DNA from: a virus
IMG/VR virus record: IMGVR_UViG_3300047157_000126
Span: 1 to 64,000 of that record
Direction: 5' to 3' (one strand)
DNA: 64,000 nt
Numbering within the stretch: position 1 is the first letter of the stretch; every line of letters begins with the position of its first letter. A program made the translations under genes and the position numbers. Positions 19,250 to 40,816 of this stretch are shown piece after piece. The notes beneath the pieces were generated by a model, which worked only from the letters and a program-made list of their open reading frames with translations, was not told the DNA's origin and did not search any database.

Positions 19250-19729
19250 TTACCCCTTATTCATTTCTTTATATAGAATCTTATATTCTTGCTCTTTAAG
19301 ACCATCAAAATCTGACATCCATTTTACAGTTTCTTCAAAATCTACTGGTACATGCATACCCATTCTTCTGTTTGTCCTTGTAGGTAAAGGGTTTTCAAAA
19401 ACCCACTCCATCAATTCTATCTTAGGTGCTTGTGAGAAATAGGGAATTAGTTTCGCTTGTTTAAGGAAATGAAACCATTTTTTAATATCAGACTCGCTGT
19501 AATAAAACTGCTTTAGTTCTATTCCTATATTTTCTAATTCCTCTTCTACTTTTTCAAGTAATTCATTTCTAGGATATACAAACAAGGTTTTCCAAGAAAC
19601 CCATTTTCTTAACTTAAAACCACCATCGTATCTATCATCTCTTGATACTCCTGTGTATATATCTAAATCAGCACAAATGAAACCTAAAGTAAAACTCCAA
19701 TCATCCATCATCTTCACCAAACATAACAT
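19250..19729 (-). CDS. Degenerate single-domain LAGLIDADG-like protein
   Basis: FTLGFICADLDIYTGVSRDDRYDGGFKLR resembles the LAGLIDADG helix and following beta strands; true start probably near 19711. Confidence 0.45.
   Translation of the reverse strand: MLCLVKMMDDWSFTLGFICADLDIYTGVSRDDRYDGGFKLRKWVSWKTLFVYPRNELLEKVEEELENIGIELKQFYYSESDIKKWFHFLKQAKLIPYFSQAPKIELMEWVFENPLPTRTNRRMGMHVPVDFEETVKWMSDFDGLKEQEYKILYKEMNKG
19260..19280 (-). promoter_or_regulatory. 21-bp promoter-like repeat, copy 9
   Basis: GATTCTATATAAAGAAATGAA on the minus strand. Confidence 0.75.
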
Positions 19730-21104
19730 CTACAACTTGTAATACATCATTCATCCCTAAGTCATCTCTGACTTCCACAAGCAGGGGGTCTACGATTGTA
19801 AGTGGGCTCTTTATGATAGTGGGAGTTACTACTTCAACCACTATGCAATATTCACTAGATACTTCTTGCCATTGATTTTGTAAAACCATTCCTGTTCTTC
19901 TATTGATTGTGAATAACAATTGTCCTGTTAAATCCCCAAAAGTTTCCATTTCGCCCACTACAACAAAATCATCTATACCATCTAAAGCACAAACTTTGAT
20001 AGAAATACTATCTTCGTTTTTCTTTACGGAATGAATTCTAAACGGTTTTCTCGCTAATGATTTCATCAATGTATAACCACCTTCTTCTGTCGGGTTATAT
20101 GGGTTATTATTAGGGAATCTAATCATATCATCATCGTGGGTTAAACTACCCCAGTGGTCTATTAACACAGGATGGTGGACTATTATTGGTTCATCTGAAA
20201 GAGACTCTTGAAATCGTTTTAATCTTTCATCTAATTTGAGGTGTGCGTATCTTGGATAGATAGCATCATACACATGAAGAGTATCATTTACTGGTACGGT
20301 TTCTAATATCACAGGACCATTAATAGACCACGATAGTTTTGGGGCTATACCTCTTGGAATCAATCTACCACTCCTATCTCTCCATACAAATCTAGAACCA
20401 GTAGGTTCGTTGATTATGTGGAGCATCTTGGTGCTTCCTTTATCTAAAACTCTCTGATAAAAACCACTGTTGTAATTAATAATTTTGTTCTGTCCTTCAG
20501 TAGATATATGAGGGTAAAACCGTCTTGGTGTTAATGCTAAATCTATGTCCTGATACCACAATTCCCCAGCATCTAAACTTAGAGGGTCAGTAAATAACAC
20601 CTCTAGTAATTCGTAGGTCGGTTTTCTTTTAATGTGTCTATTCAATACCTGTGGTGATATCTTATTCCCACTTACTGATAATAAAAATGCAGTTTCAGTC
20701 ATTACTTTCTCACCCATAATGAATCGCCAGAATAATTTTGCTTCTACTTCATCCATAGTATGAGCCGCTTCTAGAATTGAAATAGCACCCTCTGCTACAC
20801 TTTCAGCATACATTATCATTTCATTTACTGAGCGATTTCTAGGAGAGCCTTCGTTGCTCTCTCCTGCTAATGCTTTCCACACTTTTCTTTCACCAAGAAC
20901 ATCCATTACCACATCAATGTAAGTACCAACTTCTTCTGCAAATCTATTTACCAGTGTGGTTTTATTTAAAAGGGGTTTGCTTGGTATGAATAGTTGATAC
21001 AATTCCGTAGCGTCTTTGAAAGAATCCACATCAGAGAACACTTGGTTTTTATTTACACCTAAGATAATATTCTCATGTAATCTAGCAGCATGAGTAAATC
21101 TCAT
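19701..21104 (-). CDS. ATP-dependent DNA ligase-like protein, divergent, possibly inactive
   Basis: Ligase-like N-terminus MRF..AA...E, WRDRSG, VILE, VYDA, ERLKR, and OB-domain end VVEV...P....VRDD; no clear KxDG motif. Confidence 0.55.
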   Translation of the reverse strand: MRFTHAARLHENIILGVNKNQVFSDVDSFKDATELYQLFIPSKPLLNKTTLVNRFAEEVGTYIDVVMDVLGERKVWKALAGESNEGSPRNRSVNEMIMYAESVAEGAISILEAAHTMDEVEAKLFWRFIMGEKVMTETAFLLSVSGNKISPQVLNRHIKRKPTYELLEVLFTDPLSLDAGELWYQDIDLALTPRRFYPHISTEGQNKIINYNSGFYQRVLDKGSTKMLHIINEPTGSRFVWRDRSGRLIPRGIAPKLSWSINGPVILETVPVNDTLHVYDAIYPRYAHLKLDERLKRFQESLSDEPIIVHHPVLIDHWGSLTHDDDMIRFPNNNPYNPTEEGGYTLMKSLARKPFRIHSVKKNEDSISIKVCALDGIDDFVVVGEMETFGDLTGQLLFTINRRTGMVLQNQWQEVSSEYCIVVEVVTPTIIKSPLTIVDPLLVEVRDDLGMNDVLQVVDVMFGEDDG

Positions 21105-21130
21105 GGTATCACCTAAATACGAAGATAGTT

Positions 21131-21442
21131 TTATTCTTGGTGGCTGTTATGCCCTTCTGAATAAGTCTCTTCTTCTTCCCATCCTGCTCTTTTCGCTGCT
21201 TCTCTCTCATCTTCTACATCGTTTACAAAATCTACCAGTCTAGGAATTAATTCTTTCAGTTGTTCTACTGTAAGTCTAACTCCGTGTCTAGTAGGTTGAT
21301 TCTTACCATCTTGGATATTATTTATTCTCAAGTCTAACCAAGTCTTTTGATAGTATTCTATTCTTCTGGCGACTACATCACCTTTCCCATTCATCCATTT
21401 TCCTTCTAAACTAGAAGTTCTCCATAATGTCTCATTACTCAT
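21131..21442 (-). CDS. PC4-family ssDNA-binding protein
   Basis: YQKTWLDLR...QPTRHGVRLTVEQLKEL matches the PC4 (DIR...PTKKGISL) pattern. Confidence 0.8.
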   Translation of the reverse strand: MSNETLWRTSSLEGKWMNGKGDVVARRIEYYQKTWLDLRINNIQDGKNQPTRHGVRLTVEQLKELIPRLVDFVNDVEDEREAAKRAGWEEEETYSEGHNSHQE

Positions 21443-21701
21443 TCAATCACCTCTCTATATACTCTACTTAACCACGCAATTTCTTGTCTGTACCATTTAT
21501 CCCAACAATATTGACATAAACCTTCTATTCTTGCTAATCCTTTAGCCTTCATTTCAGAACCACATTTACCACAGTAACAATAATCACCCATTTAATCACC
21601 TCTCTTATCAAAACAAACTTTACAAATTGGTTTATTACCATACTGGTTTGTCCATATTCTCCCCTTAGTATTACATGAGTAACAAAAATCAATAACGTAA
21701 T

Positions 21702-21884
21702 TCATTTTTTCAAACTCCTGAATCCTATGGGAAGAGGTAATGTTTCTAATGCTCTACCTACCCCTTTTCTTCTGTAACAACCAGCACAGATAGTTTTCCC
21801 TTTTGATTTAGCAGATGCTGAAATTTTTATTTTATGACACTTGATACAAAGAATGCGTGGTGAAGAACTTACAGGTCTAGACAT
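21702..21884 (-). CDS. Small Zn-finger protein
   Basis: CIKC...CAGC; one of several Cys-rich mini-genes at 21.45-21.9 kb. Confidence 0.5.
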   Translation of the reverse strand: MSRPVSSSPRILCIKCHKIKISASAKSKGKTICAGCYRRKGVGRALETLPLPIGFRSLKK

Positions 21885-22601
21885 TTACTCCTCCTCGTCT
21901 GAATTAACAACAAAGCAGTAAGTCCCCCATAACCAAGTTGGTACTTTCCCACCAGTAATTGGACAAGCATCACCGACAAGAACACCAGTCTGGTCTTTTG
22001 CTGCTTGAATCATTTCTCTTCTTGTCATTGCTTGCATAACTCTTTTATCATCTATTTTATACCTCATAAACAATTTATCTCCCGCCATCAAATGATAATC
22101 ATCAGGGTCTACATTGAATGCTTTATCGCAATTTGGACACTCATACAAGTAGCCCCAAATTTCTACTACATCTGTATCTCCGTTTTCCAATAATACTTCT
22201 TCGCTAGATAAAAATCTAGGAGTGAAAGTTTCATGTGGCATTTCTATTAATTTACTACCACACTCACATTTCCATCCATGTGCAATATCTATCTTGTGTT
22301 GTTGTTCTAACATGTAAGCCTCTTCAGGATTAGCGGGAGCATCGAAGAGAACCTCTTCATTTTCAGCCATGTTAATTCCAATAGCCATCATTATAGTAGT
22401 AAAACGGGCGTGGTTTTCTAACACATCGGGATGATTCATCATCTTTGTTAACAACAAAGTATCATCTGACATTTTCTTATATGTTAACCCAGAACCTTCG
22501 GGCGCCCATATAGCACCTATCCCTAATCCACTCATCAAATCTTTAGCCCATTTTTTCATATCATCATTCATTTCAAAACTCATATTAATTCCTCTTTCCA
22601 T
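21885..22601 (-). CDS. Hypothetical protein with Zn ribbon
   Basis: 238 aa; CECG...CPNC. Confidence 0.6.
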   Translation of the reverse strand: MERGINMSFEMNDDMKKWAKDLMSGLGIGAIWAPEGSGLTYKKMSDDTLLLTKMMNHPDVLENHARFTTIMMAIGINMAENEEVLFDAPANPEEAYMLEQQHKIDIAHGWKCECGSKLIEMPHETFTPRFLSSEEVLLENGDTDVVEIWGYLYECPNCDKAFNVDPDDYHLMAGDKLFMRYKIDDKRVMQAMTRREMIQAAKDQTGVLVGDACPITGGKVPTWLWGTYCFVVNSDEEE

Positions 22602-22897
22602 TTTTCATCAACTTTTACAAAGTCGAATGAATTACATTTTGGACAAGGGTAAAGGATGAAACCATCAAAAACCATGACGGTTTCTTTTCCTGTTACTTCT
22701 TCCCCACACATTGTACATGCCTCGATGCACTCCGCCGAAGTACATACCATAAGTAGTCTTTGGAGTTCTCCATTTACTTCTATGTGAATATCTATATCAT
22801 GAATTGGTGCAGTAATACCATCGGGGTATTTCACCTTACCACCTTCTATAAAATTAGAAACAGAAAACTCTATTTTTTCGTATTCATCTTCATTCAT
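22580..22897 (-). CDS. Hypothetical Zn-ribbon protein
   Basis: CTMC...CPKC; AGGTGA RBS. Confidence 0.55.
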   Translation of the reverse strand: MNEDEYEKIEFSVSNFIEGGKVKYPDGITAPIHDIDIHIEVNGELQRLLMVCTSAECIEACTMCGEEVTGKETVMVFDGFILYPCPKCNSFDFVKVDEKWKEELI

Positions 22898-23206
22898 TCA
22901 ATCACCTTTTCTCCACAGAACTCACACCTCTTAGGAATGTTTTGCTTTGTTGTCTTTGTTGCATAACAATGTTTGCATTCAAAAATACGATGACCTAATC
23001 TCGTTGGGGAACGATGGACTTCACGCCATACACTATTCCAAGTTTTATTCATTCAACCACCCCTTCTAATTCTTCAATGTGATTTAGAAGCAAAGAAACG
23101 TACTCTATTAGTTCTAATCTATCCATTTCATCGACTTTTTTAATTGCATCTTGAATTATACTCGTTTTAACCCATGCTGTTGTTGTATTAAACTTCATTT
23201 AATCAC

Positions 23207-23503
23207 CTACGCTCCTATTTCTTGAGAACTCTTTCTTCTTCCTCTCATGGTACTCAACACAATCAAACTAATTGTATGTTCATCTTCCATACCGATGTTG
23301 AAGTTCATGGTTTCGGTAACTGTTTTCGCGTCGCTTTTTGATAAGTTCTCAAGTAAGTCTGATTTTACTGGTCTGAAACCATTTTGGTCTTCAATACACA
23401 TAACTATCCTATATGAATCTCCATCACGTAAAGGATAGTAGACATACCTGTTTCCTTTTTTATGGTTATTTAATTCAATATTATTACTAACATATTTAAT
23501 CAT
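23207..23503 (-). CDS. Hypothetical protein
   Basis: 98 aa with GGTGG RBS, co-oriented. Confidence 0.5.
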   Translation of the reverse strand: MIKYVSNNIELNNHKKGNRYVYYPLRDGDSYRIVMCIEDQNGFRPVKSDLLENLSKSDAKTVTETMNFNIGMEDEHTISLIVLSTMRGRRKSSQEIGA

Positions 23504-23644
23504 TCAACCACCTTACTCTTAATATGAATAGTAGGATAATCACTATTAATATGTAAAATAAAACCAATAGTTCTATTTCCCTCTTCAATATAATAACTAT
23601 TATTATCCGTTTTAAATTGAACCAATTTTAATTCATCACTCATT

Positions 23645-23878
23645 TTATTCAAACCCCATTTGTTCAAACTTTCTTAATAAAAACTCAAAAGACTTCTTAG
23701 CACCATCAAGTTGGTTTTTTCCGGGTTTTCTGAAAGATTGTGTAGACCCATGTATATTATCCCATTTCTCTTTACCCAACCTTTCGGGGAATAATTTCCG
23801 TAAGGTATAATTATCTTCTCTTTCAATACTTTCAATAAAATGAATTAAGTGTCTTTTAGTTAATTTAGTATCACTCAT
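23645..23878 (-). CDS. Hypothetical protein
   Basis: 77 aa, co-oriented. Confidence 0.5.
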   Translation of the reverse strand: MSDTKLTKRHLIHFIESIEREDNYTLRKLFPERLGKEKWDNIHGSTQSFRKPGKNQLDGAKKSFEFLLRKFEQMGFE

Positions 23879-24013
23879 TGAACCACTCTCCCTTTAGGTG
23901 CGACAGTAGAGAAACTTGCAGCCATGCCTATGAAGCAGTTGTTCTCCCAACCCTGTCGCCAGTCGAGAGATGAACTCAAGAAAAGAACTAGGTTAGTAAT
24001 TCTTTCTATCATT

Positions 24014-24601
24014 TCACTCCTCTCCTATCAAATATACATCATTTCCTTGAGTCGTCAAATCTTCTAATTCATCGGGGTCTACTCCAAGATATTTAGCCAT
24101 TGCATTTTTTTTGCTATCTTTATCTAGAATAGGTATCACACTAGACTTTGTTACTAATCTTGCTTCCTCTTCAGTCCACCACCCCATGTCTACACCATGA
24201 AAAGCCGCCATCACATACTCAGATGTTACTAAATCGGTATCTTCATGGAATACTGGTCTAATTGCATCAACCGTGATGTTTCTATTCATAGGGTCTACAT
24301 CTAGTGTTATAACTAAATTCTTTAGTAGAGGAATACCAACTTGGTATTCTTCAGATAAATCCTCCAGTAACATTTGCCATATGAAATAGTCAACCAAATC
24401 AGTTTTTAGTATATCTCTTCTTACAAAAGCCCAAGCGCTGTGTTGAGTAGATGTATCATCTACTAGATTCATTACATTAGCAATAGTCTTTTGTCGTTCA
24501 GATATTCTATTCCAAGTCCTGTCAGGAATTAAAACCCCATCTATTTTTTCTTTCGCTTCCAATATTTTATCATACATTTTTCCATCTTTTATTTCATTCA
24601 T
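24014..24601 (-). CDS. Hypothetical protein, first gene after a promoter repeat
   Basis: 195 aa; GGAGATGA RBS directly downstream of the 24622 repeat. Confidence 0.65.
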   Translation of the reverse strand: MNEIKDGKMYDKILEAKEKIDGVLIPDRTWNRISERQKTIANVMNLVDDTSTQHSAWAFVRRDILKTDLVDYFIWQMLLEDLSEEYQVGIPLLKNLVITLDVDPMNRNITVDAIRPVFHEDTDLVTSEYVMAAFHGVDMGWWTEEEARLVTKSSVIPILDKDSKKNAMAKYLGVDPDELEDLTTQGNDVYLIGEE

Positions 24602-24621
24602 TTTTATTCATCTCCTTCTTT

Positions 24622-24642
24622 TTCATTTCTTTATATAGAATC
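24622..24642 (-). promoter_or_regulatory. 21-bp promoter-like repeat, copy 8
   Basis: GATTCTATATAAAGAAATGAA followed by AAAGAAGGAGATGAA RBS. Confidence 0.8.
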
Positions 24643-24727
24643 TAACTGTTGTATTCATAACCACAAATCCTACACTTAGTTTCTCCTTTTACTCTTGGGT
24701 GCGATGTTTTGCACTTGCTTTTTTTAT

Positions 24728-25009
24728 TCATGCTTCTTCCTTTACTATCTTCTTTATTTCTTTTATGTCTAATCCGTATTCAATATGTTCTTCTGGGATA
24801 TACTTACTCCTTTTCTCTAACATATTAAAAATCACTTTGGTAATATTACTGGCTGCTTTATTGAACCTTTGTTCAGCCACTTTATCTCCATTTGGTATTC
24901 CAATCATCTTTATTTCATTAACAGACTCATGGAAAGTTTGCTCTACTTTTGTAACTAATAACGCCTTTAGTATTTCATACTCAGCGTGTTTTACACTCTT
25001 GAATCTCAT
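24728..25009 (-). CDS. Hypothetical protein
   Basis: 93 aa; GAGGGTGA RBS. Confidence 0.55.
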   Translation of the reverse strand: MRFKSVKHAEYEILKALLVTKVEQTFHESVNEIKMIGIPNGDKVAEQRFNKAASNITKVIFNMLEKRSKYIPEEHIEYGLDIKEIKKIVKEEA

Positions 25010-25674
25010 GCTTTCACCCTCGTTTCTTCTTCAAATCATCAATTGTGTCTCTCATGTTAAGGACATCTAAATGTTCATAAGTATGGAAATCGTCATTTTG
25101 CTTGTTTTGTCTAAACTCTAACTCTCCAATTAAAATATTCAAACCTCTCTTGGAATCTCCGTTCCTACTTTGTTCTTTGTAATAATTATAAGCCCATTCA
25201 ATAAACTGTTCTCTATTCTTGTGATATGAAGACACTTTGAAATCTTCCACATCTTCTAAAATCACTTTAACTCTTTCATCTAGTTCGTTATCTTCCTTTA
25301 ATATACTTTTCCAACTCATTCTACTATCTCTCCTTCTAAGGTTACTTTCTGTTTACAAGAAAAACAAATAGGTATCATCAACTCTCCACCTTGACTATAA
25401 TCGGTGTAAATCCATACTGTTGCGCCACAACATTGAGTGAGATGTATATCTAAACCATTACTCGGTTTATCATCACTCATTCTTGCATCACCCCTGTCCA
25501 ATACACAAGCCACTCTAATTTCTCAATCAACTCATCTTGGTCTATCTCATCTAACTCATACTTAATCCACATCTCTTGGAGATAGTATGCAAGGCTATGT
25601 TTTGAGTTGGATGACATGTTATCCACTTCATACCGTATTTTACCCCTCATGCTTTCACCCTCGTTTCTTCTTCA
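25005..25674. repeat. 29-bp perfect direct repeat at 25005-25033 and 25646-25674
   Basis: CTCATGCTTTCACCCTCGTTTCTTCTTCA twice; on minus it covers stop, RBS and ATG of gene junctions. Confidence 0.85.
25014..25319 (-). CDS. Hypothetical protein
   Basis: 101 aa beginning MSWKSILKE. Confidence 0.55.
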   Translation of the reverse strand: MSWKSILKEDNELDERVKVILEDVEDFKVSSYHKNREQFIEWAYNYYKEQSRNGDSKRGLNILIGELEFRQNKQNDDFHTYEHLDVLNMRDTIDDLKKKRG

Positions 25675-25789
25675 CATACATTACAGTAGGGATGTTCTTC
25701 ACAATCATCTGTAATCTTCATTTCCTGATTCACCCACATCTTAAACTCCAAATCAGTAGAGCCGCAGTGTGTACATTCAAACTTGTATG

Positions 25790-26299
25790 TCATGCCGTCA
25801 CCCCCATCCACCAGTCAGGCGGGCTTGTGTGTCTGTAATGCACACCGCCTTTACTGTCTGCTTTGCTGTGGTAGTAGGCTCTGTACGCTTTGACTGCATC
25901 ATCATCTTTGTATTCATCAGGCATGGCCTGAGCAAATGGTGTAAGGTCACCTTCAGGGATGTATTCTATCCATTCTATCATGTGTATTATTGGCTGCTTA
26001 CATGCATGTTCTTTGAGGAAACGTTGTTCATACTCCCTGCACAAAGCCAAAGCGTGTGTCGCAAGCCATGAGAAGTTAGCACGTGTATCTCCCGCAAAAA
26101 TTGTGCATGGGTGATTTTTGTACCCGCCCTTGTATGGCCGCCCCGCCTTCGTCAACGGCATTCGTTCCTTTGGTGCTCCATGTCTACGCAAGGCTGATGC
26201 CATCATTTGCGCTGACTCAGTGACCATCTTAGGCACTCTAACACAGTCCATTGCTGCTGCTGCTTTTATTGGGTCATTATCTAATACAAATATATTCAT
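25790..26299 (-). CDS. Pyrimidine-dimer DNA glycosylase-related (T4 endonuclease V-like family) protein
   Basis: MNIFVLD.DP..AA, KM..ESAQM, NHPCT, EY..RF..H, FAQAMPDEYK..D.V.AYR.YY. Confidence 0.8.
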   Translation of the reverse strand: MNIFVLDNDPIKAAAAMDCVRVPKMVTESAQMMASALRRHGAPKERMPLTKAGRPYKGGYKNHPCTIFAGDTRANFSWLATHALALCREYEQRFLKEHACKQPIIHMIEWIEYIPEGDLTPFAQAMPDEYKDDDAVKAYRAYYHSKADSKGGVHYRHTSPPDWWMGVTA

Positions 26300-26625
26300 T
26301 CTTCTTCCTCCCTGAACCAACCATCCACTTTTATTTCTTCTTCATCATCTTCTTCATCGTCAAAGTAATCAACATAGTTTTCCGTTCTCCGAAAGGTTAT
26401 TTCTACGGTATCATCACGTGGTATTACACTACTTCCAACATGACCATAACGGTTTTCTCCCATATTCCATAGTCTGTTACCTTCTTTCTCAGCAATACGT
26501 TTTACTTCACTTTCAGTTAATTGTTTGCCGCATGACTGTACTTCCCATTGCTGTACTCTTACACTTTTACTTGTAATTGTGTAAGTGAAAGTTTTTTCCC
26601 ACTCCTCTCTTAAGGCCATCTTCAT
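26296..26625 (-). CDS. Hypothetical protein
   Basis: 109 aa, acidic C-terminus ending EEE*. Confidence 0.55.
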   Translation of the reverse strand: MKMALREEWEKTFTYTITSKSVRVQQWEVQSCGKQLTESEVKRIAEKEGNRLWNMGENRYGHVGSSVIPRDDTVEITFRRTENYVDYFDDEEDDEEEIKVDGWFREEEE

Positions 26626-26825
26626 TCAACCCACCCTAATTTTAAGTCTTCTAGTATTGATTCAAGACACAAAGTATGTTGTTGCGATTCACTACATTTT
26701 CCACATTGTATAGTTACAAGCACATCTTCACCACTATTAATTACCTCAAAATTACCTACATACACATAATCATGTAAACATATATGTTCGTCTAAATATT
26801 CTTGGCCTCTTCCATCTTCGCTCAT
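26622..26825 (-). CDS. Small hypothetical protein
   Basis: MSEDGRG...CLH...CGKC; GGAGG RBS. Confidence 0.5.
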   Translation of the reverse strand: MSEDGRGQEYLDEHICLHDYVYVGNFEVINSGEDVLVTIQCGKCSESQQHTLCLESILEDLKLGWVE

Positions 26826-27159
26826 TCTTCTTCCTCCTTGATTACCCATCCTGTACTAAGAGAATATACCATACCTGCTTCGTGATTTTTCCTACATTCT
26901 TTTATTCCCGTACAAAACGCTTGAACATATCTTTGCCCTCTATCATATCTGATTAATTGGCAATAAGGGCATCTGTAACTACTCATTCTTCTTCCTCCGC
27001 AAAAATGCCTGTTGCTTTCTCATAAGCAGTATAGATGTCGTTGTCAGGATATAGATGTCGATGTGTCTCTTCTAACCAATCAATGTAAGTATGGTCTTCG
27101 TCATGTTGTTGCTGAATCCATTCAAGCGTCTGTCTAGCCTGTTGTATAATACTAGGCAT

Positions 27160-27548: not shown

Positions 27549-27569
27549 TTCATTTCTTTATATAGAATC
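27549..27569 (-). promoter_or_regulatory. 21-bp promoter-like repeat, copy 7
   Basis: GATTCTATATAAAGAAATGAA overlapping the phosphatase stop codon. Confidence 0.8.
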
Positions 27570-30821: not shown

Positions 30822-30842
30822 TTCATTTCTTTATATAGAATC
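30822..30842 (-). promoter_or_regulatory. 21-bp promoter-like repeat, copy 6
   Basis: GATTCTATATAAAGAAATGAAGAATAAGGAGATGAA. Confidence 0.8.
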
Positions 30843-32903: not shown

Positions 32904-33550
32904 CCATCATCACAACATGAGTTACGACAATCAAGACAGACCATATTCCCACAACAGTCTGCTTCTTCGGCATTTCCAAAACCTTGATTTGGTGCGTCAT
33001 CTGATGCTGCCTCCATTTTGTAATCACCTTCAGTCCCACCACAATTGGTAAATGCTATCTTAATTTCCCACTCAGGAACTTCATAAAAAACGGTATATAT
33101 CTTATAGAAATCTTCCCTAGAAATATTTTGTCTGTGTTCTTCTGGTAATCTGTTACGGTTCTGATATACTTCTCCAGTTAATTTGTTACGGTATTTATCA
33201 GTCAGAAAAGCCTCAATCGCAAACATTCTCTCTTCACTAAACTCGCTATCTGTATTTCTAGTTGCTTCCCAAAAACTAGAAGGGTCTTTTTCCAAGTCTT
33301 GTCCTTCCATACTCTCACACTTCTCAGGAAAGTTAGCCCTTGCTTGCCACGCATACAAGTCTACTCCACCTATCTCACCATAGTCATCGTAAGTATCTAT
33401 GATGTGGTTACCGTCAGGCATGTAGGCTATTGCCTCTCCACCATCTTGTAATCTCTTGTTACAAGAATGACATTCACCTTCATAAGTGTTATATTGAGGG
33501 CTTACTTCTAAGCCACAACCACAATTACACATCCATGCAAAACTACCCAT
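32897..33550 (-). CDS. Hypothetical Cys-containing phage protein
   Basis: MGSFAWMC...YDDYGEIGG...D.PNQGF. Confidence 0.6.
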   Translation of the reverse strand: MGSFAWMCNCGCGLEVSPQYNTYEGECHSCNKRLQDGGEAIAYMPDGNHIIDTYDDYGEIGGVDLYAWQARANFPEKCESMEGQDLEKDPSSFWEATRNTDSEFSEERMFAIEAFLTDKYRNKLTGEVYQNRNRLPEEHRQNISREDFYKIYTVFYEVPEWEIKIAFTNCGGTEGDYKMEAASDDAPNQGFGNAEEADCCGNMVCLDCRNSCCDDGW

Positions 33551-33769
33551 TCACTCATCACCTCTACTGTATTCCAATAGTGCATCACCGTCATCACCAG
33601 CATACTCCATGAGTATTTTGTATGAACAATTTAATTTGTGATACGCTTCTAACGCCTTGTCTTTATCGTCAAACTTTTCAAAGTCATCAAAGACACCCAA
33701 TGGTGGTTCTGTTTTTTCATACCAAATGTGTAATTCATACACAGTTTTTGTTTCACTTAAGTCAATCAT
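33551..33769 (-). CDS. Hypothetical protein
   Basis: 72 aa, translationally coupled. Confidence 0.55.
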   Translation of the reverse strand: MIDLSETKTVYELHIWYEKTEPPLGVFDDFEKFDDKDKALEAYHKLNCSYKILMEYAGDDGDALLEYSRGDE

Positions 33770-34059
33770 TCGTAAATCATCTCCTTGACTTCATCCTCAT
33801 CCTTGTCCAAGTGATACATCACCCAGTGCAATAGAGCAGTGTGGTAGTCCTGCAACTCCTTGTATGCTTCAAGGAGAAGTGGTGCGTCTTGAATCAGATT
33901 CGTGGTAGCATTTGCTCGCTCTGTGTCTGCATTCAGTTGATTGGAATCAGTTACCCAAAACATATCATAGTCACTAGGAACTGCATCATCAGTATTCCAC
34001 AATTCAACTGACGACTCATGGTAAGTATAGTGTCCTTCGTATTTGTCTGTGTCAATCAT
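33766..34059 (-). CDS. Hypothetical protein
   Basis: 97 aa; MIDTD start; A...LIQDAPLLLEA motif common in phage early proteins. Confidence 0.55.
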   Translation of the reverse strand: MIDTDKYEGHYTYHESSVELWNTDDAVPSDYDMFWVTDSNQLNADTERANATTNLIQDAPLLLEAYKELQDYHTALLHWVMYHLDKDEDEVKEMIYE

Positions 34060-35126
34060 TCAAAATCACTCGCTGGTACTAAATATTCTTCAAACACTTC
34101 ACTATCTTCTTCGTCTTTCATTTCCATGAATTGCTCTGCAAGTCTCCAAGCATCTTTCTTACGCCTTGCTAATTCACCAAACAGAACTGACTCTTGTCTC
34201 TTGAGAGACTTCTTACCATCTTTGAGTGTAGTAAATCGGTGGTCAATTGCTTCTGTAATAATATTGTATGCTTGCCAAAGAGTACCGGACATTCTACCAA
34301 CATTGTTGGAAGCCTCGTAAAGTAACTCTTCAACTTCTTTCAGTTTGTTTTCACCACGTGTATGTAATTTACCATCTTCATCTCTCTTTAGTTTGAGAGT
34401 GTCAGCCCAGTAAAGCCTCATGTCCTCTATTTCCATTGGGGTATTTAGCATGTCATCAGCCATCTCGCCCCACTCAAAGAACTCTTGGTTAATCATACCA
34501 AGTGTCTCACGAACTTCATCTACATGGTCAAACATTTTTCCTGTGTGTCTAATGTTGTGTCCAACCCCACCTCTGTTCAAAGCCCAAGTCAAAGTGTTGT
34601 TACAAACCACACGAACTGGAGTTTGTAAAATCTTAACTGCTCCAGTTCCGTCATGTGTATTACTAATTAGAATGAACTGCTGAACTTCATCAACACCGTC
34701 AAGAATAATACTATTCGGCATCTTTGCTAGAATCCATACACGTTCCCCATTACCTAGTGCCCCACACACTTCTATCTTCGCTTCTTGGTTTTGGAATATC
34801 TCATCCATAAGAGCAAAAGCGTCTACATTTTGAAGCGCTGTCCATACTCTACCAACTGCTTTACCTTTGCGAGTTAATGGAATCATGTTACCTTCCAAGT
34901 CATCTCTGAATACACCAAATGTATCAGGTACTCTAACTGGGTTACCTTCTTCATCCATTGCATACAATGGTTCTTTTCGTACTGTCCAATCTAGGTGTGC
35001 CATTTCCAAGGCTTCGACTGAAGTCATCAGACCAGAAGCCTGTTGTCCCAACCCATGCCAAGGAGTATCACCACTCCATGCTGTCATATAATTTCCTGTC
35101 GTCGTTTGTGCTATTTCGTGTGCCAT
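34056..35126 (-). CDS. DUF932-family phage/plasmid protein
   Basis: PWHGLG, LDWTV, QN.DAF, NTHDG, TPVRVVCNNTL, RHTG, GTLWQAYN. Confidence 0.85.
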   Translation of the reverse strand: MAHEIAQTTTGNYMTAWSGDTPWHGLGQQASGLMTSVEALEMAHLDWTVRKEPLYAMDEEGNPVRVPDTFGVFRDDLEGNMIPLTRKGKAVGRVWTALQNVDAFALMDEIFQNQEAKIEVCGALGNGERVWILAKMPNSIILDGVDEVQQFILISNTHDGTGAVKILQTPVRVVCNNTLTWALNRGGVGHNIRHTGKMFDHVDEVRETLGMINQEFFEWGEMADDMLNTPMEIEDMRLYWADTLKLKRDEDGKLHTRGENKLKEVEELLYEASNNVGRMSGTLWQAYNIITEAIDHRFTTLKDGKKSLKRQESVLFGELARRKKDAWRLAEQFMEMKDEEDSEVFEEYLVPASDFE

Positions 35127-35128
35127 AT

Positions 35129-35323
35129 TTATTCATCTCCTGTTGTTTTTATTTTTCCTGTTATTTCATCTAAGTACAGTTTACCAATTGTTGTGGTAAA
35201 AATTGTACCGTTCATCATGTGAATGTCCATTGTTTCGTTATCATAGTTATATGTAAACGCCACAATAGCATCCAAATCCATCGTTGTTATTCCTGTTTTT
35301 GTATTTACTTTTTCATATCTCAT
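35129..35323 (-). CDS. Small hypothetical protein after a promoter repeat
   Basis: 64 aa; GGAGATGA RBS. Confidence 0.55.
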   Translation of the reverse strand: MRYEKVNTKTGITTMDLDAIVAFTYNYDNETMDIHMMNGTIFTTTIGKLYLDEITGKIKTTGDE

Positions 35324-36668
35324 TTTGGCTCATCTCCTTATTCTTCATTTCTTTATATAGAATCTTCATTCTTGGTTCTCCATCAACGGATAGAAGGAGA
35401 AGGAGATACACACCATACTCATAGCCATCTTGGTAGTATTTCCAAAGATACTCACTTCCATCACCTAATTCATCTGCTATAATAGCAGACTGTAAATATT
35501 CATCAGCATGAACCATTCCTTGTTCTATAAGACCATCCTCTACACCGCGTTTGAATGCTTGAATGATGTCCTTTCTACTTTGTATAATTGAGTCAATCAT
35601 TCTTGAGTCAATCATTCTTCTTCCTCCTTTTCATATCCCACAATCTTACTATTCATGTCTATAACCACATCTAACAATGAGATTTTTTTGTCGCTACCTC
35701 TTTCATAATTACCCGACAAAAGGAATAGTTCTCTTCTCGCTTGTTCGAGGTCAATATTTACGCTGTCACTACCGTAAATAATCACATTCTTTAGTGCTTT
35801 AATGTAACCATTATACCACTCTATCTGTTCTTTCTCTGTTAGTTCCTTCCACCATGTAGGTTTAGGGCCGGGTTCATATGCATAACTCATTCTTCCATCT
35901 CCTCTTCGGTTTTGAAAACAAGTTGAACTGTTTTATCTGTTTCTTTAATGTCTAAATATTTGTCTGCTATAATGTAACCTTCACCATAGAAATGGTCTGG
36001 TATGTAATTGAAAACCCAAGAGTACGGTAGTCTAGCACCTTGAGCACGGCTCAAGTAATCATTACCATGGTGTTGTTCAATCATTTGTACAAACTTATCT
36101 TCAGCAAAGAAAGCATTCTTCACTACATCGTATTCAATCTTATCATCTATATCTTGTAGTCGCCCAACTAAATCTCTAGTTTTCAACGCTGCCTGTCTTG
36201 CAATAAACTCTCTTGTTGTTTCGTTAGCAACATTGCTACTCCATCCAGTATCGGCCATTTTCTGCACAAACTCTTCAGAAATCTTCCAACCAACTTCGTT
36301 GAAACGCAGGGTTGCTTCCTTTACTGAAATAAAACGGGAGTAGTTTTTATTTGCTATTCTGCCTACACCACTAGCCATTGAAACCACTGCTACATTCCAA
36401 CTGTGTATCTGTTGCCATTCATCTTCTGTCCATTCATCTTTATTTTTTACTGTTATATTCAAACTCATTCTTCTTCATCTCCATAATTTTCTTTCATCCA
36501 TGCCGCCTCAAGTTTCCGCAACCGCTTGACTTCTGCGAGCAGGTCATTCAATCCCTTTTTCTGTTCGCTCCAATCATCGCCGTATTGCTCATTATTTTCT
36601 AAGAACGCTACTACTTCCCCTACTACATGCCAATTGAGAAACTTATCGTGGCTGTCTGTGTCAATCAT
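35313..36668 (-). CDS. Four coupled small hypothetical genes (35313-35615, 35612-35890, 35887-36468, 36465-36668)
   Basis: ATGA overlaps, EEE* ends, GGAGG/GGAGATG RBSs. Confidence 0.55.
35344..35364 (-). promoter_or_regulatory. 21-bp promoter-like repeat, copy 5
   Basis: GATTCTATATAAAGAAATGAAGAATAAGGAGATGA. Confidence 0.8.
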
Positions 36669-36940
36669 TCCTCTTCCACCTCTTCAATTTCTACGTGTTC
36701 AGCATTGAATAAAGCGTCGTTGTATGGCTTCCCAAACAATTCATGTGTTACCCATAGTTGTTCTTCAAGTTCTTCAGCGTCTTCTGCCAAACACGTTATC
36801 GTTCCTTCGTATGTTACTCTTACCTCATATGTTTTTTCTTTCATTCTTCTTCCTCCTGTGTTCTGTTTGTTTTGTTTTCATTCATTCTTCGTGCTTTATA
36901 TTTCATATTATATCTCGCTTTTCTTGCTGCATTTTGTCTT

Positions 36941-37458
36941 TTATTCGGCATAGCCTTCACCTCTCTCTTCTTCATCTAAATAATACATAGCATACTCTGG
37001 GTACTCTCTCAGTATCTCAACAACAGTATCGTGGTTGGAATTATATTCTTCACCATCAGTATATCTCGCTGTAAAATACGCCCGTATTATTGTGTCCATT
37101 TCATCATTAGTCATCATTTCTGCATCTCTCATTCTTCTTCATCTCCTTCGTTAAAGTACCAACTAAAGTTGGTTTGTCTTTTTTTACTCTTACCTAATGC
37201 CTGTAAGTGGTGTAAAACCGAAGCAATTCTTTCAAACTCTTTAGCAAGACACGCAATCCTCATACCTCTTGTGTGTTGGTGGTAACTACTATTTTGGTAT
37301 GTATCAGTATTCCAAGTAGCGCTGAGTAATTCAATTAACTCATTTTTCTTATCCATATGTGCTATTTGAGCCATTAATAATAATTCATCATAATCCATTT
37401 GCATTCTGTTTCCATCTATGTAATTTCCTTTTCTTTCAATCATTTTTCTTTCATTCAT
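36941..37458 (-). CDS. Two coupled small hypothetical genes (36941-37132, 37129-37458)
   Basis: Follow the promoter repeat at 37479; ATGA overlap. Confidence 0.55.
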
Positions 37459-37478
37459 CTTAATTCATCTCCTTATTC

Positions 37479-37499
37479 TTCATTTCTTTATATAGAATC
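37479..37499 (-). promoter_or_regulatory. 21-bp promoter-like repeat, copy 4
   Basis: GATTCTATATAAAGAAATGAAGAATAAGGAGATGAATTAAGATG. Confidence 0.8.
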
Positions 37500-37706
37500 T
37501 TAGTTCTTAAGACCCCGTTGGTATTAATTCATTTATATAATGTACTCGACAGTATATAAATAAAGCAATCAAATATCATGTATTACCACCATAATCTTTC
37601 ACTATCATCTTTCTACCACTCATACCAAAGCGGTAGTTATCATGTGTAGCATTCGCTATCTAGGTTCAGTCATTCCTCTGTTCAACATCCCATCGTCGCG
37701 CTCCAT

Positions 37707-38261
37707 TTAGCACCACGACCCCCACAAGTATATTCCCTTCTTAGTCTCTATCTTGGTATAGTTATACATTTGGTCGCGAGCATAATGTTCCCAATTAACG
37801 TAACCAACAAGTGGGTTATCATCAGTAGCAATACCAATATCATGTGCTTCGTTCATAAAGTAATCTTTGAGTTCAAACTCATACTCACATGCATAGAATA
37901 AGTTTTCTTTGACGTGTTCAACATTGTCTGACATTTCTTGAGTAGTGCTGTAGTTATTTTTACAGGCTATTAGTATAGCATCTCTGTCATCATCACCATC
38001 TAAGTATTCAAAGAGAGAATACAAGTGTTGTATGTCTGGGTTCTCTCCTAAGTTAATACCATCGTAGTCTTGAATATGACATTCATCATGGTGTTCGTGG
38101 GTGCAACCTGCAAGTTTACAAAGTCCACGACCTGTGTGTATGACACCATCTTCATCTACTAGTTGTTCATATGAAATCCACTTGAATACTAAACGACCTT
38201 CCGCATAACATCCAAGGCATCCCATTGCTATATTTTTATCACTATTTATTTGTTCATTCAT
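37707..38261 (-). CDS. ardA: ArdA-like anti-restriction (DNA-mimic) protein
   Basis: Y.EG.L..KW, E.HIQDYDG..LGE, YVNWEHYARD; highly acidic 184 aa. Confidence 0.7.
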   Translation of the reverse strand: MNEQINSDKNIAMGCLGCYAEGRLVFKWISYEQLVDEDGVIHTGRGLCKLAGCTHEHHDECHIQDYDGINLGENPDIQHLYSLFEYLDGDDDRDAILIACKNNYSTTQEMSDNVEHVKENLFYACEYEFELKDYFMNEAHDIGIATDDNPLVGYVNWEHYARDQMYNYTKIETKKGIYLWGSWC

Positions 38262-38444
38262 TTAACATCCCTCCGGTACAAAATCAAAACCATGGTCCAT
38301 CAGTAAGTAACTAGCATATGCAAGCATGTCGGCATAGTAATAAGAACCATCCTCCATGTTTATTACCACTCTAATAGTTTCATGCTCTTCATCATGCCAT
38401 GCTTCTATGTTTTTTATTTCTGTTAATTTATCTGTCATCTTAAT

Positions 38445-38648
38445 TCATCTCCTGTACCTTAGTTCTGCATAACTTTTCCATAGTATGTTGTACTGTTTTC
38501 TCATACTTTTTACTTCTCCAAACAGTATGTTGTAATTCCTTAAACTTGTTCGCACCACTTCATCTATGTCCGTTTCATCTACTTCAATCAAACTGTGTAA
38601 TTCCTCTAACATATCTCTTTCTAGTTCTTTCCAATTTTGTTTGTTCAT
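38445..38648 (-). CDS. Small hypothetical protein
   Basis: 67 aa; GGGGG RBS. Confidence 0.5.
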   Translation of the reverse strand: MNKQNWKELERDMLEELHSLIEVDETDIDEVVRTSLRNYNILFGEVKSMRKQYNILWKSYAELRYRR

Positions 38649-38849
38649 CTTAATTTTCCCCCCGTCTAATCTGGCTAAAAGTTAAGCCATATATTTCCTC
38701 AATAATATCAGTAGGAATCATTACATACGGTGCATTCCTTTCAGCATCGCATGTAATTTTACCATACCCATATATGTCATCTGCATTCTTTCTTATAAAA
38801 TCCAATAATAATTCATTTCCTTTGTTCATCTTAATTCATCTCCTTGTTA

Positions 38850-38870
38850 TTCATTTCTTTATATAGAATC
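38850..38870 (-). promoter_or_regulatory. 21-bp promoter-like repeat, copy 3
   Basis: GATTCTATATAAAGAAATGAATAACAAGGAGATGAATTAAGATG. Confidence 0.8.
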
Positions 38871-38874
38871 TCTT

Positions 38875-39372
38875 TCAGTTCTCCCACACAGTTCCATACC
38901 AACTACTACCATGCTCAAAGTAACAGTCATGCTTTGCTAGTAACGCCTGTATCTTTTGTTCGTATTCCCAATGAGTTTTGGAATCCATGTATGCTAAGTC
39001 ACCATCTGTTGAAAGCCTGTCGTAAAAGAAACCACCGTCGTATATAATTCTAAACAGACCACCATTATCTGGCGCACCAAAGACATCACACCCACCAATT
39101 TCACAAAAAGAAGTTGTAGGTTCATTCGCTTCTTCAAGAGTCACAGGTTCTAGTCCTTCACTAGCAAATGTATTGTTGAGCAATACTAAACTATCTTTGT
39201 CATACTCACCGTATATTGTCCTCTCTCTTATGTGAAACATATCATCAAAGAGTTCTCTAAGTTCTAAGGCAATCTTTCGAGCCTTACCACTTAGCATATA
39301 TACGTTCATTTCTGCGGGCCATTCTTCGTTTGTTATTTCTGTCTTCATTTTTCTCATTCCTTTGTTATTCAT
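38875..39372 (-). CDS. Hypothetical early protein
   Basis: Acidic ORF flanked by two promoter repeats; true start probably MKTEIT near 39348. Confidence 0.6.
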   Translation of the reverse strand: MNNKGMRKMKTEITNEEWPAEMNVYMLSGKARKIALELRELFDDMFHIRERTIYGEYDKDSLVLLNNTFASEGLEPVTLEEANEPTTSFCEIGGCDVFGAPDNGGLFRIIYDGGFFYDRLSTDGDLAYMDSKTHWEYEQKIQALLAKHDCYFEHGSSWYGTVWEN

Positions 39373-39388
39373 TTCTTTATATAGAATC
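39368..39388 (-). promoter_or_regulatory. 21-bp promoter-like repeat, copy 2
   Basis: GATTCTATATAAAGAAATGAA; partial extra copy ATATAAAGAAA just upstream (~39393-39403). Confidence 0.8.
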
Positions 39389-39752
39389 TTAGTTTCTTTA
39401 TATGTGAGTGTGGATTTTGTGCTTTGTACGATTATTAATATGGACTTTAGACATATGTGTCATGTTTCATCTAGTTCTCTATGTATATATTATAATATAT
39501 ATGTATAAGTAAGTAATAATAAAGATAAGTAAGTGTACTTGTATAGTGTCTATACTAATCATCGGATTGATAGGATATGAGAGAGCATTCCCTCATGTAT
39601 GTATATGTGTATAGTAGATAGCCCTACCAAGACATACCCCCGACATAACACCGAGGCTGTTTTCTTTATGTACTGAAACCTATCAGGTAGGACAGCACGC
39701 TGTCTAGGGTAGGATTAGGGGTGAACTTTTGCGCTAATCAAAAGTTGGATAT

Positions 39753-39790
39753 AAAAAAAGGCCACCCCCCATTTAGAGGGGTGGGTTTTT
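39753..39790 (-). terminator. GC hairpin followed by oligo-T
   Basis: CCACCCC/GGGGTGG stem followed by T7 on minus, just after the 39797 stop. Confidence 0.65.
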
Positions 39791-39796
39791 GGTTAT

Positions 39797-39985
39797 TCAT
39801 TCCGCTATTACCGGCATCCATGGGTGACCGGAATCAGTAGCGCAATCTCTGCAATAGAAATCTATTATCTCTAGTCTCTCTGCGTGCCAGAGTATGGCAG
39901 CGTCAGCAACTTGAACTTTACATTCAGGGCAGTTTTCTATTTGTATTGCGGGCATTCTTAATATTTGGTTTTCCATATTTTTCAA
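39797..39985 (-). CDS. Small Zn-ribbon protein
   Basis: CPEC...CRDC; start probably MENQ after a GGAG RBS. Confidence 0.55.
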   Translation of the reverse strand: MKNMENQILRMPAIQIENCPECKVQVADAAILWHAERLEIIDFYCRDCATDSGHPWMPVIAE

Positions 39986-39990
39986 CTCCT

Positions 39991-40027
39991 GTTGGATAGA
40001 AGGGGGAGGCCGAAGCCCCGTCCCAAC
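39991..40027 (-). other. Intergenic hairpin with cUUCGg tetraloop
   Basis: Minus strand GTTGGGACGGGGC-TTCG-GCCTCCCCC...CCAAC immediately after the 40028 stop. Confidence 0.6.
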
Positions 40028-40771
40028 TTATTCGACAACTCCTTGTTCTTGTAGAGCGGCAAAAATCTCGTTTATCTTTGCTTTCAATTGTATGTTCTCA
40101 AGTCTCAAGTTTTCAACTGCTTTGTCTTTAGCAATCAGTTTTGCTGACTTTGCTTGACCTTTTACAGTCTTAACAGACTTGGAAGTTTTCTTTCCATTGC
40201 GTACAGTTTTCTTAACTTTCTTTGTAGTAACTCCATCTTGAGTTCCTTGCCAGACATATTTGCTGTATACTTTAGCAATCGCTTCTTGTCTTGGTGGGCC
40301 TTTTAGTCCATCGAAAGCCTTATGCCAATCACCATTTTCTTTTCTTGCATATGCTTTCATTGCTGCTTTCTTGGTTGTGAAAGGGACTGTAATTCCTTCA
40401 GCCCACCAAGCCACACCATCAGCAGCCTTGACATTTGCTGCTTTCTGAGTCATCAATTTCTTTACTGCTTTACATGCTGCTTGAAGTGGCTTAGCATTAT
40501 CAAGAGCAGTTGCTCTTTTAGCATCAGACTTACGACCTTCAATTGTATAAATCCTGTCAACCATTGCTCTTATTTCTGTGCGGCTAAAGTCAATATTATT
40601 ATTATCAAATGACTTGCGTCCTACTCTAATAGTTACTCTCTGCAAAGTTTCAGGGTTCAAAGGTATAGCGCAACGGGTTGCTTTACTTCGTAAGAAGGTA
40701 GCACATCTTGCTGCTATTTCTTTATTGCTTATTGTTTGCGGGGCATCATTGTTTGGTTTGTTTGTTTTCAT
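40028..40771 (-). CDS. Lys/Ala-rich basic protein with C-terminal coiled coil; first gene of the leftward arm
   Basis: 247 aa; GAGG RBS; downstream of promoter copy 1. Confidence 0.7.
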   Translation of the reverse strand: MKTNKPNNDAPQTISNKEIAARCATFLRSKATRCAIPLNPETLQRVTIRVGRKSFDNNNIDFSRTEIRAMVDRIYTIEGRKSDAKRATALDNAKPLQAACKAVKKLMTQKAANVKAADGVAWWAEGITVPFTTKKAAMKAYARKENGDWHKAFDGLKGPPRQEAIAKVYSKYVWQGTQDGVTTKKVKKTVRNGKKTSKSVKTVKGQAKSAKLIAKDKAVENLRLENIQLKAKINEIFAALQEQGVVE

Positions 40772-40795
40772 TCTTAAAACCTCGACAATATGTTC

Positions 40796-40816
40796 TTCGT
40801 TTCTTTATATAGAATC
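40796..40816 (-). promoter_or_regulatory. 21-bp promoter-like repeat, copy 1 (one mismatch)
   Basis: GATTCTATATAAAGAAACGAA. Confidence 0.75.

Follow-up and report, generated by a model that had tools for sequence, protein, structure and literature searches.

What is the function of a 21-bp sequence that occurs nine times, always in the same orientation, along one arm of a virus genome? The question is raised by GATTCTATATAAAGAAATGAA, found in a stretch of 64,000 nucleotides (the window) that comprises positions 1 to 64,000 of the IMG/VR virus contig IMGVR_UViG_3300047157_000126, whose full record has 81,728 bases and a CheckV completeness estimate of 75%. The genes it encodes identify it as a group A magrovirus. 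A first-pass annotation had proposed that the repeat is a strong viral early promoter with an extra recognition site, and that it doubles as a recombination boundary between gene cassettes, like the PeSL elements of T4-type phages. The repeat, its conservation pattern and its geometry were established directly here, and from them we infer promoter activity, a start site and a role for the flanks. Each 21-mer is probably a promoter of the early-to-middle arm, read by the host's archaeal RNA polymerase together with TATA-binding protein (TBP) and transcription factor B (TFB). The repeat family as a whole most likely represents real, clade-wide promoter repeats of group A magroviruses, in a repeat-promoter layout already known from haloviruses.

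The minus-strand arm spans from approximately 41100 down to 4400, and the two arms of the genome diverge at approximately 41100-41360. Allowing up to three mismatches, GATTCTATATAAAGAAATGAA matched the window nine times, with eight exact copies and one carrying a single mismatch, all on the minus strand; number, coordinates and orientation agree with the first-pass annotation. No further copies were present in the whole 81,728-base record (0 forward and 9 reverse matches; reversed control, 0), and 100 dinucleotide-preserving shuffles gave zero matches. Each copy is made up of 5 nt, the 8-bp AT-rich TATA box TATATAAA, found in all nine, and a further 8 nt. Copy 1 (40796..40816, TATA box 40804-40811), which carries the mismatch (T>C at motif position 18), heads the gene for a 247-amino-acid (aa) protein (40028-40771). 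Copy 2 (39368..39388, box 39376-39383) follows approximately 370 nt of non-coding DNA and heads a 157-aa gene (38875-39348), copy 3 (38850..38870, box 38858-38865, ATG 38829) heads a cassette extending to ArdA, copy 4 lies at 37479..37499 (box 37487-37494, ATG 37458), and copy 5 (35344..35364, box 35352-35359, ATG 35323) heads a DUF932 and SNF2 cassette. Abutting the SNF2 stop codon is copy 6 (30822..30842, box 30830-30837, ATG 30801), whose cassette contains a 681-aa protein and a tyrosine-phosphatase-like protein (27550-30339). Copy 7 (27549..27569, box 27557-27564, ATG 27528) contains the TGA of the upstream open reading frame (ORF), copy 8 (24622..24642, box 24630-24637, ATG 24601) heads a 5.3-kb run of mostly small ORFs, and copy 9 (19260..19280, box 19268-19275) heads the replication block (RFC, PolB and on to the thermosome). 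Copies are referred to below by number or lower coordinate.

Spacing from copy to copy ranges from 518 to 5,362 nt. It had been noted that most copies sit at or just after the preceding stop codon: five of the nine (38850, 35344, 30822, 27549 and 19260) abut or overlap the end of an upstream ORF of at least 40 aa, and the other four trail it by 37, 85, 207 and 408 nt. An alignment that included 60 nt of flanking DNA revealed that identity begins abruptly at the first G of the 21-mer, its 5' edge. On the 3' side, weaker identity persists for approximately 30 nt through the ribosome-binding site (RBS) and the first three codons, and the continuation ATGAATGAA is common to four copies. All 21 positions are invariant in eight of the nine copies; conservation thus reaches well beyond the TATA box, as first claimed.

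The arrangement of start codons is the strongest argument for a promoter. Distances (+n) are counted in nucleotides from the last A of TATATAAA. In six of the nine copies (38850, 37479, 35344, 30822, 27549 and 24622) the RBS AAGGAGATGA is followed by an ATG at +29, which bears out the earlier statement that an RBS and an ATG lie downstream of most copies. This RBS lies 13-22 nt after the box, with its GGAG at +15 to +18. Copy 39368 has a weaker RBS, AAAGGAATGAG, with an ATG at +28, and copy 40796 has CGAGGT with an ATG at +33. After copy 9 there is instead a hairpin leader on the minus strand (19145..19248; 16-bp outer stem, -34 kcal/mol, z -2.65, with 1 of 200 shuffles as good), whose 5' arm begins at +20 and whose 3' arm stops 4 nt short of the RFC RBS. 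An alternative reading of this stretch is a 37-codon ORF beginning with ATG 19245 at +23.

Related viruses share this architecture. One other IMG/VR contig (G302) has the exact 21-mer, in two copies; this contig is 96-97% identical to window 26233-3918, and both copies within the overlap (24622 and 19260) are conserved in place. A search with the SNF2 protein yielded 23 related loci (labelled L), 12 of which have their own repeated 12-mer with a TATA-like core, always on the SNF2 strand. Three loci (L019, L023 and L021), whose repeated words ATGATTGACACA (coding) and TTTAAGAACCAA have no such core, are excluded from these family counts. Across seven lineage-specific flank types, including that of the window, the conserved core is TA(T/C)(A/T)TAAA(G/C). 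The virus studied here has GATTC-TATATAAA-GAAATGAA; its relatives have AATTCA-TACTTAAA-GGAGCAA, GTTGA-TATATAAA-GCARCA, TTAG-TATATAAA-GCAGCA, AATGA-TATATAAA-CCAA, TGAC-TATTTAAA-CTG and TTCAG-TATTTAAA-GAAACA. A degenerate regular expression for the core also flags three chance sites in the window (39672, 30500 and 10433).

Exact matches to the GTTGA type numbered 52, spread over 13 IMG/VR contigs. Five records, of which four are 90-100% complete, had 59 matches with up to one mismatch, every one of them on one strand, and the reversed control gave 0. The arm bearing the matches measured 21-36 kb in these five records, and 33-36 kb of approximately 105 kb in the three largest. In the lineages of the GTTGA and TTAG types, the SNF2 cassette, the 681-aa cassette and others are preceded by syntenic copies. 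With the same architecture in relatives, the repeat is a clade-wide feature of one genome arm rather than a peculiarity of one contig. What all lineages have in common is the 8-bp AT box, and everything around it differs, consistent with a TATA box and hence a promoter. The promoter part of the earlier claim is therefore well supported by comparison: the core is kept in seven versions, on the gene strand only and in one arm, with fixed ATG distances on the sense side.

These distances were examined across the family. The 156 motif instances were collapsed by similarity over 45 nt downstream to 80 non-redundant contexts for an ATG profile, leaving out instances less than 90 nt from a locus end, and to 83 for RBS-aware start picking, leaving out those within less than 12 nt. 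On the sense side, ATG peaks were seen at +19 (11 contexts), +21/22 (7+14) and +28/29 (15+9); the antisense side showed mostly 0-3 per position, with no peak at +19, +21/22 or +28/29. The +19 class (GAGAGATG, L020/L022 types) is ambiguous, being either a start codon or part of an RBS. Start picking found 11 contexts, from four flank types, that have no Shine-Dalgarno sequence and have the ATG at +21 or +22. A fixed box-to-ATG spacing of 21-22 nt in contexts lacking an RBS matches what leaderless archaeal mRNAs require, and for the many relatives' copies with the ATG at exactly +21/22 we predict leaderless mRNAs.

In archaeal core promoters, transcription starts approximately 22-27 nt downstream of the TATA box. 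Transcription from the viral repeat would start 21-22 nt after the last A of TATATAAA and proceed along the minus strand, which would place the start 13-14 nt below the lower coordinate of each copy in the window (for copy 4, at approximately 37465-37466). In this genome the predicted start would lie 6-8 nt before the ATG, giving transcripts from a cassette's own promoter very short leaders. In line with a start at +21/22, the mRNA of the replication block would begin with the hairpin found after copy 9.

Several observations weigh against a promoter of this kind. The predicted start is downstream of the GGAG (+15 to +18), and mRNAs from a cassette's own promoter would therefore have no RBS. 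This is the main internal weakness of the model, and a start nearer the box would remove it. The archaeal TFB-recognition element (BRE) directly upstream of the box is purine-rich, with the consensus RNWAAW; no such element precedes the viral box, which has GATTC here and GTTGA, TTAG, AATGA, TGAC, TTCAG or AATTCA in relatives. The first-pass annotation had already described the upstream flank as unlike a BRE, and was right in this. The RNA evidence consists of assembled contigs, which are unable to show transcript 5' ends and possibly contain DNA. Finally, the 12-mer TTCTATATAAAG was not enriched in 401 Thermoplasmatota genomes (100 with a match, at most 4 per genome, and a similar result for the reversed control); it is therefore not a common promoter in these genomes, which represent the phylum holding locus L035 and may not include Poseidoniales, the presumed host group. 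Where the motif has a cellular counterpart, moreover, the viral gene strand reads TATATAAA, the reverse of the cellular orientation TTTATATA, and with the box so turned some antisense firing of the viral element is possible.

That counterpart also offers support, since six of the 12-mer matches directly precede thermosome genes (L110-L115; G056, G132, G157, G042 and G242), where the 12-mer, on the opposite strand, sits at the place expected for a TATA box. On the gene strand these six loci have the arrangement AGAAAT-C-TTTATATA-GAA, with a common upstream CTTTATATAGAA. An AGAAAT/GAGAAAA-type BRE precedes the box in four of the six and an RBS of the GGAGGTGA type follows it in four of the six, with the ATG 26-37 nt after the box in five loci and 61 nt in the sixth. 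The region upstream of these genes has the appearance of a chaperonin promoter that part of the phylum has conserved. The thermosome loci came from a search of 301 genomes of one phylum, which gave 30 loci; CTTAAGAG/CTTATGA-like boxes approximately 60-70 nt upstream were noted among the 11 of these loci whose upstream regions were viewed, and were not used further. A thermosome search of genome contigs gave three loci, none labelled Poseidoniales.

For the misplaced RBS we favour the explanation that AAGGAGATGA would mainly serve read-through transcripts arriving from an upstream promoter, because there are almost no terminators between cassettes; alternatively, the start would lie closer to the box than the model places it. 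In the whole minus arm only two runs of at least seven T occur on the sense strand, at 39759 and 4481. The first belongs to a terminator-like hairpin on the minus strand (39753..39784; 9-bp stem with 7 G-C pairs followed by seven T, z -2.09), which closes the first cassette. Four RNA-library runs, out of 14 available as assembled contigs, were analysed over 21001-41000 and gave patchy fragments, most of them at least 99% identical, and contigs from these libraries bridge copies 30822, 38850 and 39368. The scarcity of T runs and the bridging contigs fit read-through past internal promoters. Cover was near zero in the bins 27004-27670 and 37009-37675, which contain copies 27549 and 37479; no inference was drawn from this. 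Between the terminator-like hairpin and copy 39368 lies a non-coding stretch of approximately 370 nt and unusual composition (39389-39760), within which an extra TACATAAAG at approximately 39672 and a second hairpin (39638-39656) were observed.

The closest known case appears to be that of the intergenic-repeat promoters of halovirus HF2 and other haloferacalesviruses. HF2 is reported to have two classes of intergenic repeats, and nine of nine tested had promoter activity; mapped start sites put the beginning of the TATA box at -26, early-middle genes are served by the class I repeats, which relatives have conserved, read-through yields long transcripts, and antisense activity was measured for class II (Russ, Pfeiffer and Dyall-Smith, 2021, PMC8707807). 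As far as the sections of that report used here describe it, HF2 shares with the magrovirus a tailed archaeal virus as its setting, a conserved, TATA-bearing and exclusively intergenic repeat serving an early-middle arm, conservation beyond the needs of a basal promoter, the lack of an RNA polymerase of its own (in the magrovirus, none was found), long read-through transcription, and conservation of the repeats in sequence and position among relatives. The magrovirus repeat is likewise confined to intergenic sites, found nowhere else in the record and carried on the strand of the downstream gene, and both the repeats and their positions are conserved among related viruses. Going by its description, class I is set apart by a length of 58 bp and three conserved blocks that include the start region, whereas the invariant magrovirus unit is 21 bp and ends approximately 14 nt before the predicted start. 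HF2 also has a second repeat class for late genes, whereas the late arm of the magrovirus has no repeated motif, and activity and start sites were measured in HF2 but are predicted here. Concerted switching of flanks around a constant core between lineages, as seen in magroviruses, does not figure in those sections of the HF2 account (PMC8707807).

The terms promoter and TATA do not occur in the main text of the magrovirus papers examined, and a literature search on archaeal virus promoters returned nothing on magroviruses among its results. If the promoter model is correct, it would give the viruses of an abundant but uncultured group of archaea their first testable transcription model, comprising a box, a start predicted 21-22 nt further downstream, and mRNAs that are leaderless or have very short leaders, and dividing the non-structural arm into operons. 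It would separate a motif-driven early-middle programme from a motif-free late arm, and would show that the repeat-promoter layout demonstrated in haloviruses also exists in marine tailed viruses of archaea.

The repeats could also be joints between cassettes, copied and pasted from site to site, with their identity due to recent spread and homogenisation. This is compatible with a promoter, and we regard it as a genuine, if somewhat doubtful, possibility. Similarity beyond the 21-mer, extending for approximately 30 nt over the RBS and first codons of six copies, is hard to explain by factor binding. Furthermore, homology is lost on one side exactly at the motif in several pairs of relatives: identity upstream and downstream of the motif was 79% vs 57% for L012/L015 (at 4509/4628), and across the motif it changed from 81% to 39% for L012/L029 (4509/12184) and from 23% to 83% for L014/L029 (9423/9435), against a random-window baseline with a mean of 38% and a maximum of 63%. 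In the distant pair L029/L012, six of six motif junctions were broken vs 7 of 17 others (p 0.017), and in the distant pair L013/L029 six of seven vs one of seven others (p 0.015); L018, identical to L012, was left out of the pair tests. Cassettes have also changed places. DUF932 comes after a promoter copy in three lineages, each time at another position in the arm; in L020 and L022 the SNF2 and 681-aa/phosphatase cassettes stand in inverted order. The 681-aa/phosphatase pair comes directly after a copy in eight of ten maps; here two small ORFs separate it from the copy, and it is missing from the partial locus L014.

Close relatives give a different picture. Compared with G302, three indel or replacement events were seen (25037-25645, 22908-23869 and an insertion near 11985), none of which lies at a copy, and zero of two motif junctions were broken between these two genomes vs 5 of 36 others. 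Nor was there enrichment for L012/L015 (3/5 vs 9/15) or L013/L016 (3/8 vs 4/7), and an identity of 21 bp is short for homologous recombination. Because the pairs share ancestry, so that their p values are not independent, and because a conserved island by itself ends BLAST matches, the boundary idea is rated only partly supported: synteny breaks were more frequent at the repeats than at other junctions in distant pairs, and cassettes have moved, but close pairs showed no such excess and the closest relative had no indel at a copy. Comparison of the maps indicates that repeat-headed cassettes do move over long times, and the close pairs tested gave no sign that the repeats are preferred sites of recent exchange.

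PeSLs are described as sigma-70-like promoters, each coupled to a stem-loop that acts as terminator (Arbiol et al., 2010, PMC2839356; Comeau et al., 2014, PMC4122927). On that description the magrovirus repeats resemble them as short conserved regulatory repeats that head small, variable genes of mostly unknown function, and in that some gene replacements or cassette moves end at repeats. Unlike PeSLs, they have an archaeal TATA box with no stem-loop or terminator, and the closest magrovirus pair has no indel at a repeat. We found no conserved -35 element, and none of the sigma-70-like sites listed, a set that leaves out ten weaker ones, is at a copy; the three motif contexts analysed show no folding beyond that of shuffles, and the only sense-strand T runs of at least seven in the arm are those at 39759 and 4481. 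Having neither stem-loop nor terminator, the element is not a PeSL, and that part of the first-pass annotation holds as an analogy only. A further parallel is HGTV-1, in which a conserved motif of a TATA sequence plus an inverted repeat is reported before ORFs of the left arm (Sencilo et al., 2013, as cited in PMC3950731). There too, according to that citing text, a TATA-like motif precedes most ORFs of one arm, and the motif was likened to PeSLs in transcription and shuffling; it differs in including an inverted repeat, whereas the magrovirus motif has no significant fold.

If the repeats are promoters, their flanks still have to be accounted for, as these hardly vary inside one genome but change from lineage to lineage, at every copy at once. 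Paralogous copies within a genome were compared over 14 flank positions, with identities of 0.84 for L012, 0.87 for L029 and 0.70 for L013, whereas orthologous copies of L013 vs L012/L029 (the TTAG vs GTTGA lineages) had 0.59-0.61, compared with 0.57 for non-orthologous pairs. A single-base difference, GCAACA vs GCAGCA, follows genomes and not positions, and the GTTGA flank is kept at a level of at least 90% across 60 distinct contexts. By these comparisons the flanks show concerted evolution, and their uniformity would come from selection for one reader, copying between sites, or both. Most likely the flanks would set the direction and strength of the near-symmetric TATA box, and they may also bind a regulator; invariant flanks may fix direction because the box is almost symmetric.

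In a further reading, which is also compatible with a promoter and which we consider doubtful, the flanks form a private code, bound by a virus-encoded factor or by one host TFB paralogue, so that each lineage's promoter class is turned on or off all together, as in T7-group phages with their own polymerases and as conjectured for the HF2 repeats. Phage-polymerase promoters of that group are approximately 20 bp, near-identical within one genome and different between related viruses. The magrovirus repeats resemble them in being near-identical, approximately 20 bp long and lineage-specific; unlike the T7 group, no viral RNA polymerase was found (in a search whose positive control was silent), and the core is a general TATA box common to all lineages. 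The invariance of all 21 positions in eight of nine copies, the concerted change of flanks (paralogues 0.70-0.87 vs orthologues 0.59-0.61) and the retention of the GTTGA flank over its 60 contexts all favour such a code, as does the length of the 21-mer, approximately that of a TBP-TFB footprint. Six-frame searches of the record, which is approximately 75% complete, gave no match to the TFIIB or TBP families, nor to the single-subunit RNA polymerase family PF00940, for which the positive control matched no genome. When 50 window ORFs (45 in the minus arm) were scanned against Pfam, none of these families and no clear DNA-binding regulator was found; PHROGs scans covered 10 of the 50. The earlier suggestion of an extra recognition site is thus confirmed as to flank invariance and concerted switching, but a reader encoded by the virus was not found.

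The HF2 example cuts both ways here. Its authors propose that virus factors bind the HF2 repeats, yet according to the same report these repeats need no viral proteins to function, and activity did not fall when conserved parts other than the TATA box and the start region were mutated (PMC8707807). We think it unlikely that each group A lineage has retuned its early-middle promoters in concert to one viral protein or to a TFB of its Poseidoniales host. If such a lineage code were true, the flank type would report, and perhaps restrict, the host or factor used, and would be an archaeal counterpart of the promoter-polymerase co-evolution of T7-group phages. In any case, the lineage-specific flanks are a simple sequence marker that could classify group A genomes and guide a search for host factors.

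It is also conceivable, but very unlikely, that the motif has no promoter activity and acts at the RNA level in long polycistronic transcripts, either as a site of processing or as an A-rich, unstructured enhancer of translation ahead of the RBS. The motif always lies just before an RBS, the arm is nearly devoid of terminators, RNA-library contigs cross three copies, and long haloviral transcripts are reportedly cut into smaller ones later (PMC8707807). On the other hand, the part conserved across lineages is the TATA-box sequence and not the RBS side. The RBS lies anywhere between +11 and +31, while the ATG is never credibly nearer than +19 to +22, and contexts lacking an RBS hold the fixed +21/22 spacing. 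RNA folding at the motif in three contexts was no better than for shuffles (z -0.25, -0.74 and -1.05), and Rfam gave 0 matches on 19000-41500; with neither a fold nor an Rfam match, a role at the DNA level is favoured.

A bacterial-style, -10-only promoter resembling T4 late promoters (TATAAATA), starting approximately 7 nt after the box so that all RBSs fall inside the transcript, would suit the position of every RBS at +11 or later and could make the conserved bases after the box an initial transcribed sequence, but is highly improbable, as the replication and chaperonin genes are archaeal-type, there is no conserved -35 element, sigma-70-like sites are at the expected number (70 vs 68 +/- 7.4), scans of the window ORFs and record found no sigma or polymerase gene, and the fixed 14-15-nt leader of the 11 contexts lacking an RBS would have no rationale.

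For the preferred reading, promoters recognized by the host machinery, the timing claimed earlier can be kept in a modified form. 'Early' is plausible as early to middle, in view of ArdA and the many small ORFs in the arm and of the last copy, which heads the RFC-PolB block. No repeated promoter-like word was found in the late arm. Late-arm genes that follow gaps (window 60573 and 3955; record 70285) have their own AT boxes, TAAATAAA, TTATAAAA and TATAAATA, ending 24-25 nt before the ATG, and the one at 70285 has no RBS. On the minus strand at 8651-8715, a TATATACT box ends 21 nt before the ATG (+22) of a 472-aa gene (7232-8650), and may be an internal promoter of the replication block.

The gene content agrees with the assignment of the virus. 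By family matches, the minus arm encodes PolB, a family B DNA polymerase (12347-14749), an SNF2 helicase (30843-32903), DUF932 (34056-35126), a thermosome-type chaperonin (4939-6441) and an RFC-like clamp loader (18151-19131), together with a PD-(D/E)XK nuclease, an ERCC4 nuclease and a pyrimidine-dimer glycosylase. The same arm has an ArdA-like anti-restriction homologue (37707-38261, E 7e-12), a tyrosine-phosphatase-like protein (27550-28293, weak match) and a protein with a PC4-like single-strand-binding domain (21131-21442, 25.9 bits at a cut-off of 25). Poseidoniales are Marine Group II; neither these archaea nor their magroviruses have been cultured, and both abound in the surface ocean. 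The literature assigns a thermosome subunit and an SNF2 helicase to group A magroviruses (Philosof et al., 2017, PMC5434244, in the part drawn on here). According to the ICTV profile, clade A corresponds to Apasviridae, viruses of Poseidoniales, with oppositely oriented replication and morphogenesis modules, and the modules are opposed in this record too. Given the group A assignment the host is treated as an archaeon, the host itself being an inference of the literature.

Other searches were negative within their scope. Megablast of 19000-41000 against a phage collection gave no match, a tRNA search found none, and a protein atlas query with the 247-aa protein of the first cassette gave no usable match. 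The 681-, 467-, 458- and 472-aa ORFs had no match at Pfam E<=0.001 or PHROGs E<=0.01.

Three minor observations concern other parts of the material. In the divergent region between the arms, seven copies of CGCTAA (as GCGCTAA(A)G) lie within 124 nt on the minus strand (41109-41232), of a total of 21 across the whole window; the cluster may represent origin iterons or regulator binding sites. The best match to the viral thermosome in the genome collection, 52% identical, is on L034, a 9.6-kb contig labelled as part of a Parvibaculum metagenome-assembled genome, which may be a mis-binned magrovirus or archaeal fragment. In L019 (15573-16586) and L023 (13652-15143), five tandem small genes all begin with ATGATTGACACAGACAAATA (M I D T D K Y ...) and, judged by this common start, are a paralogous family of small proteins.

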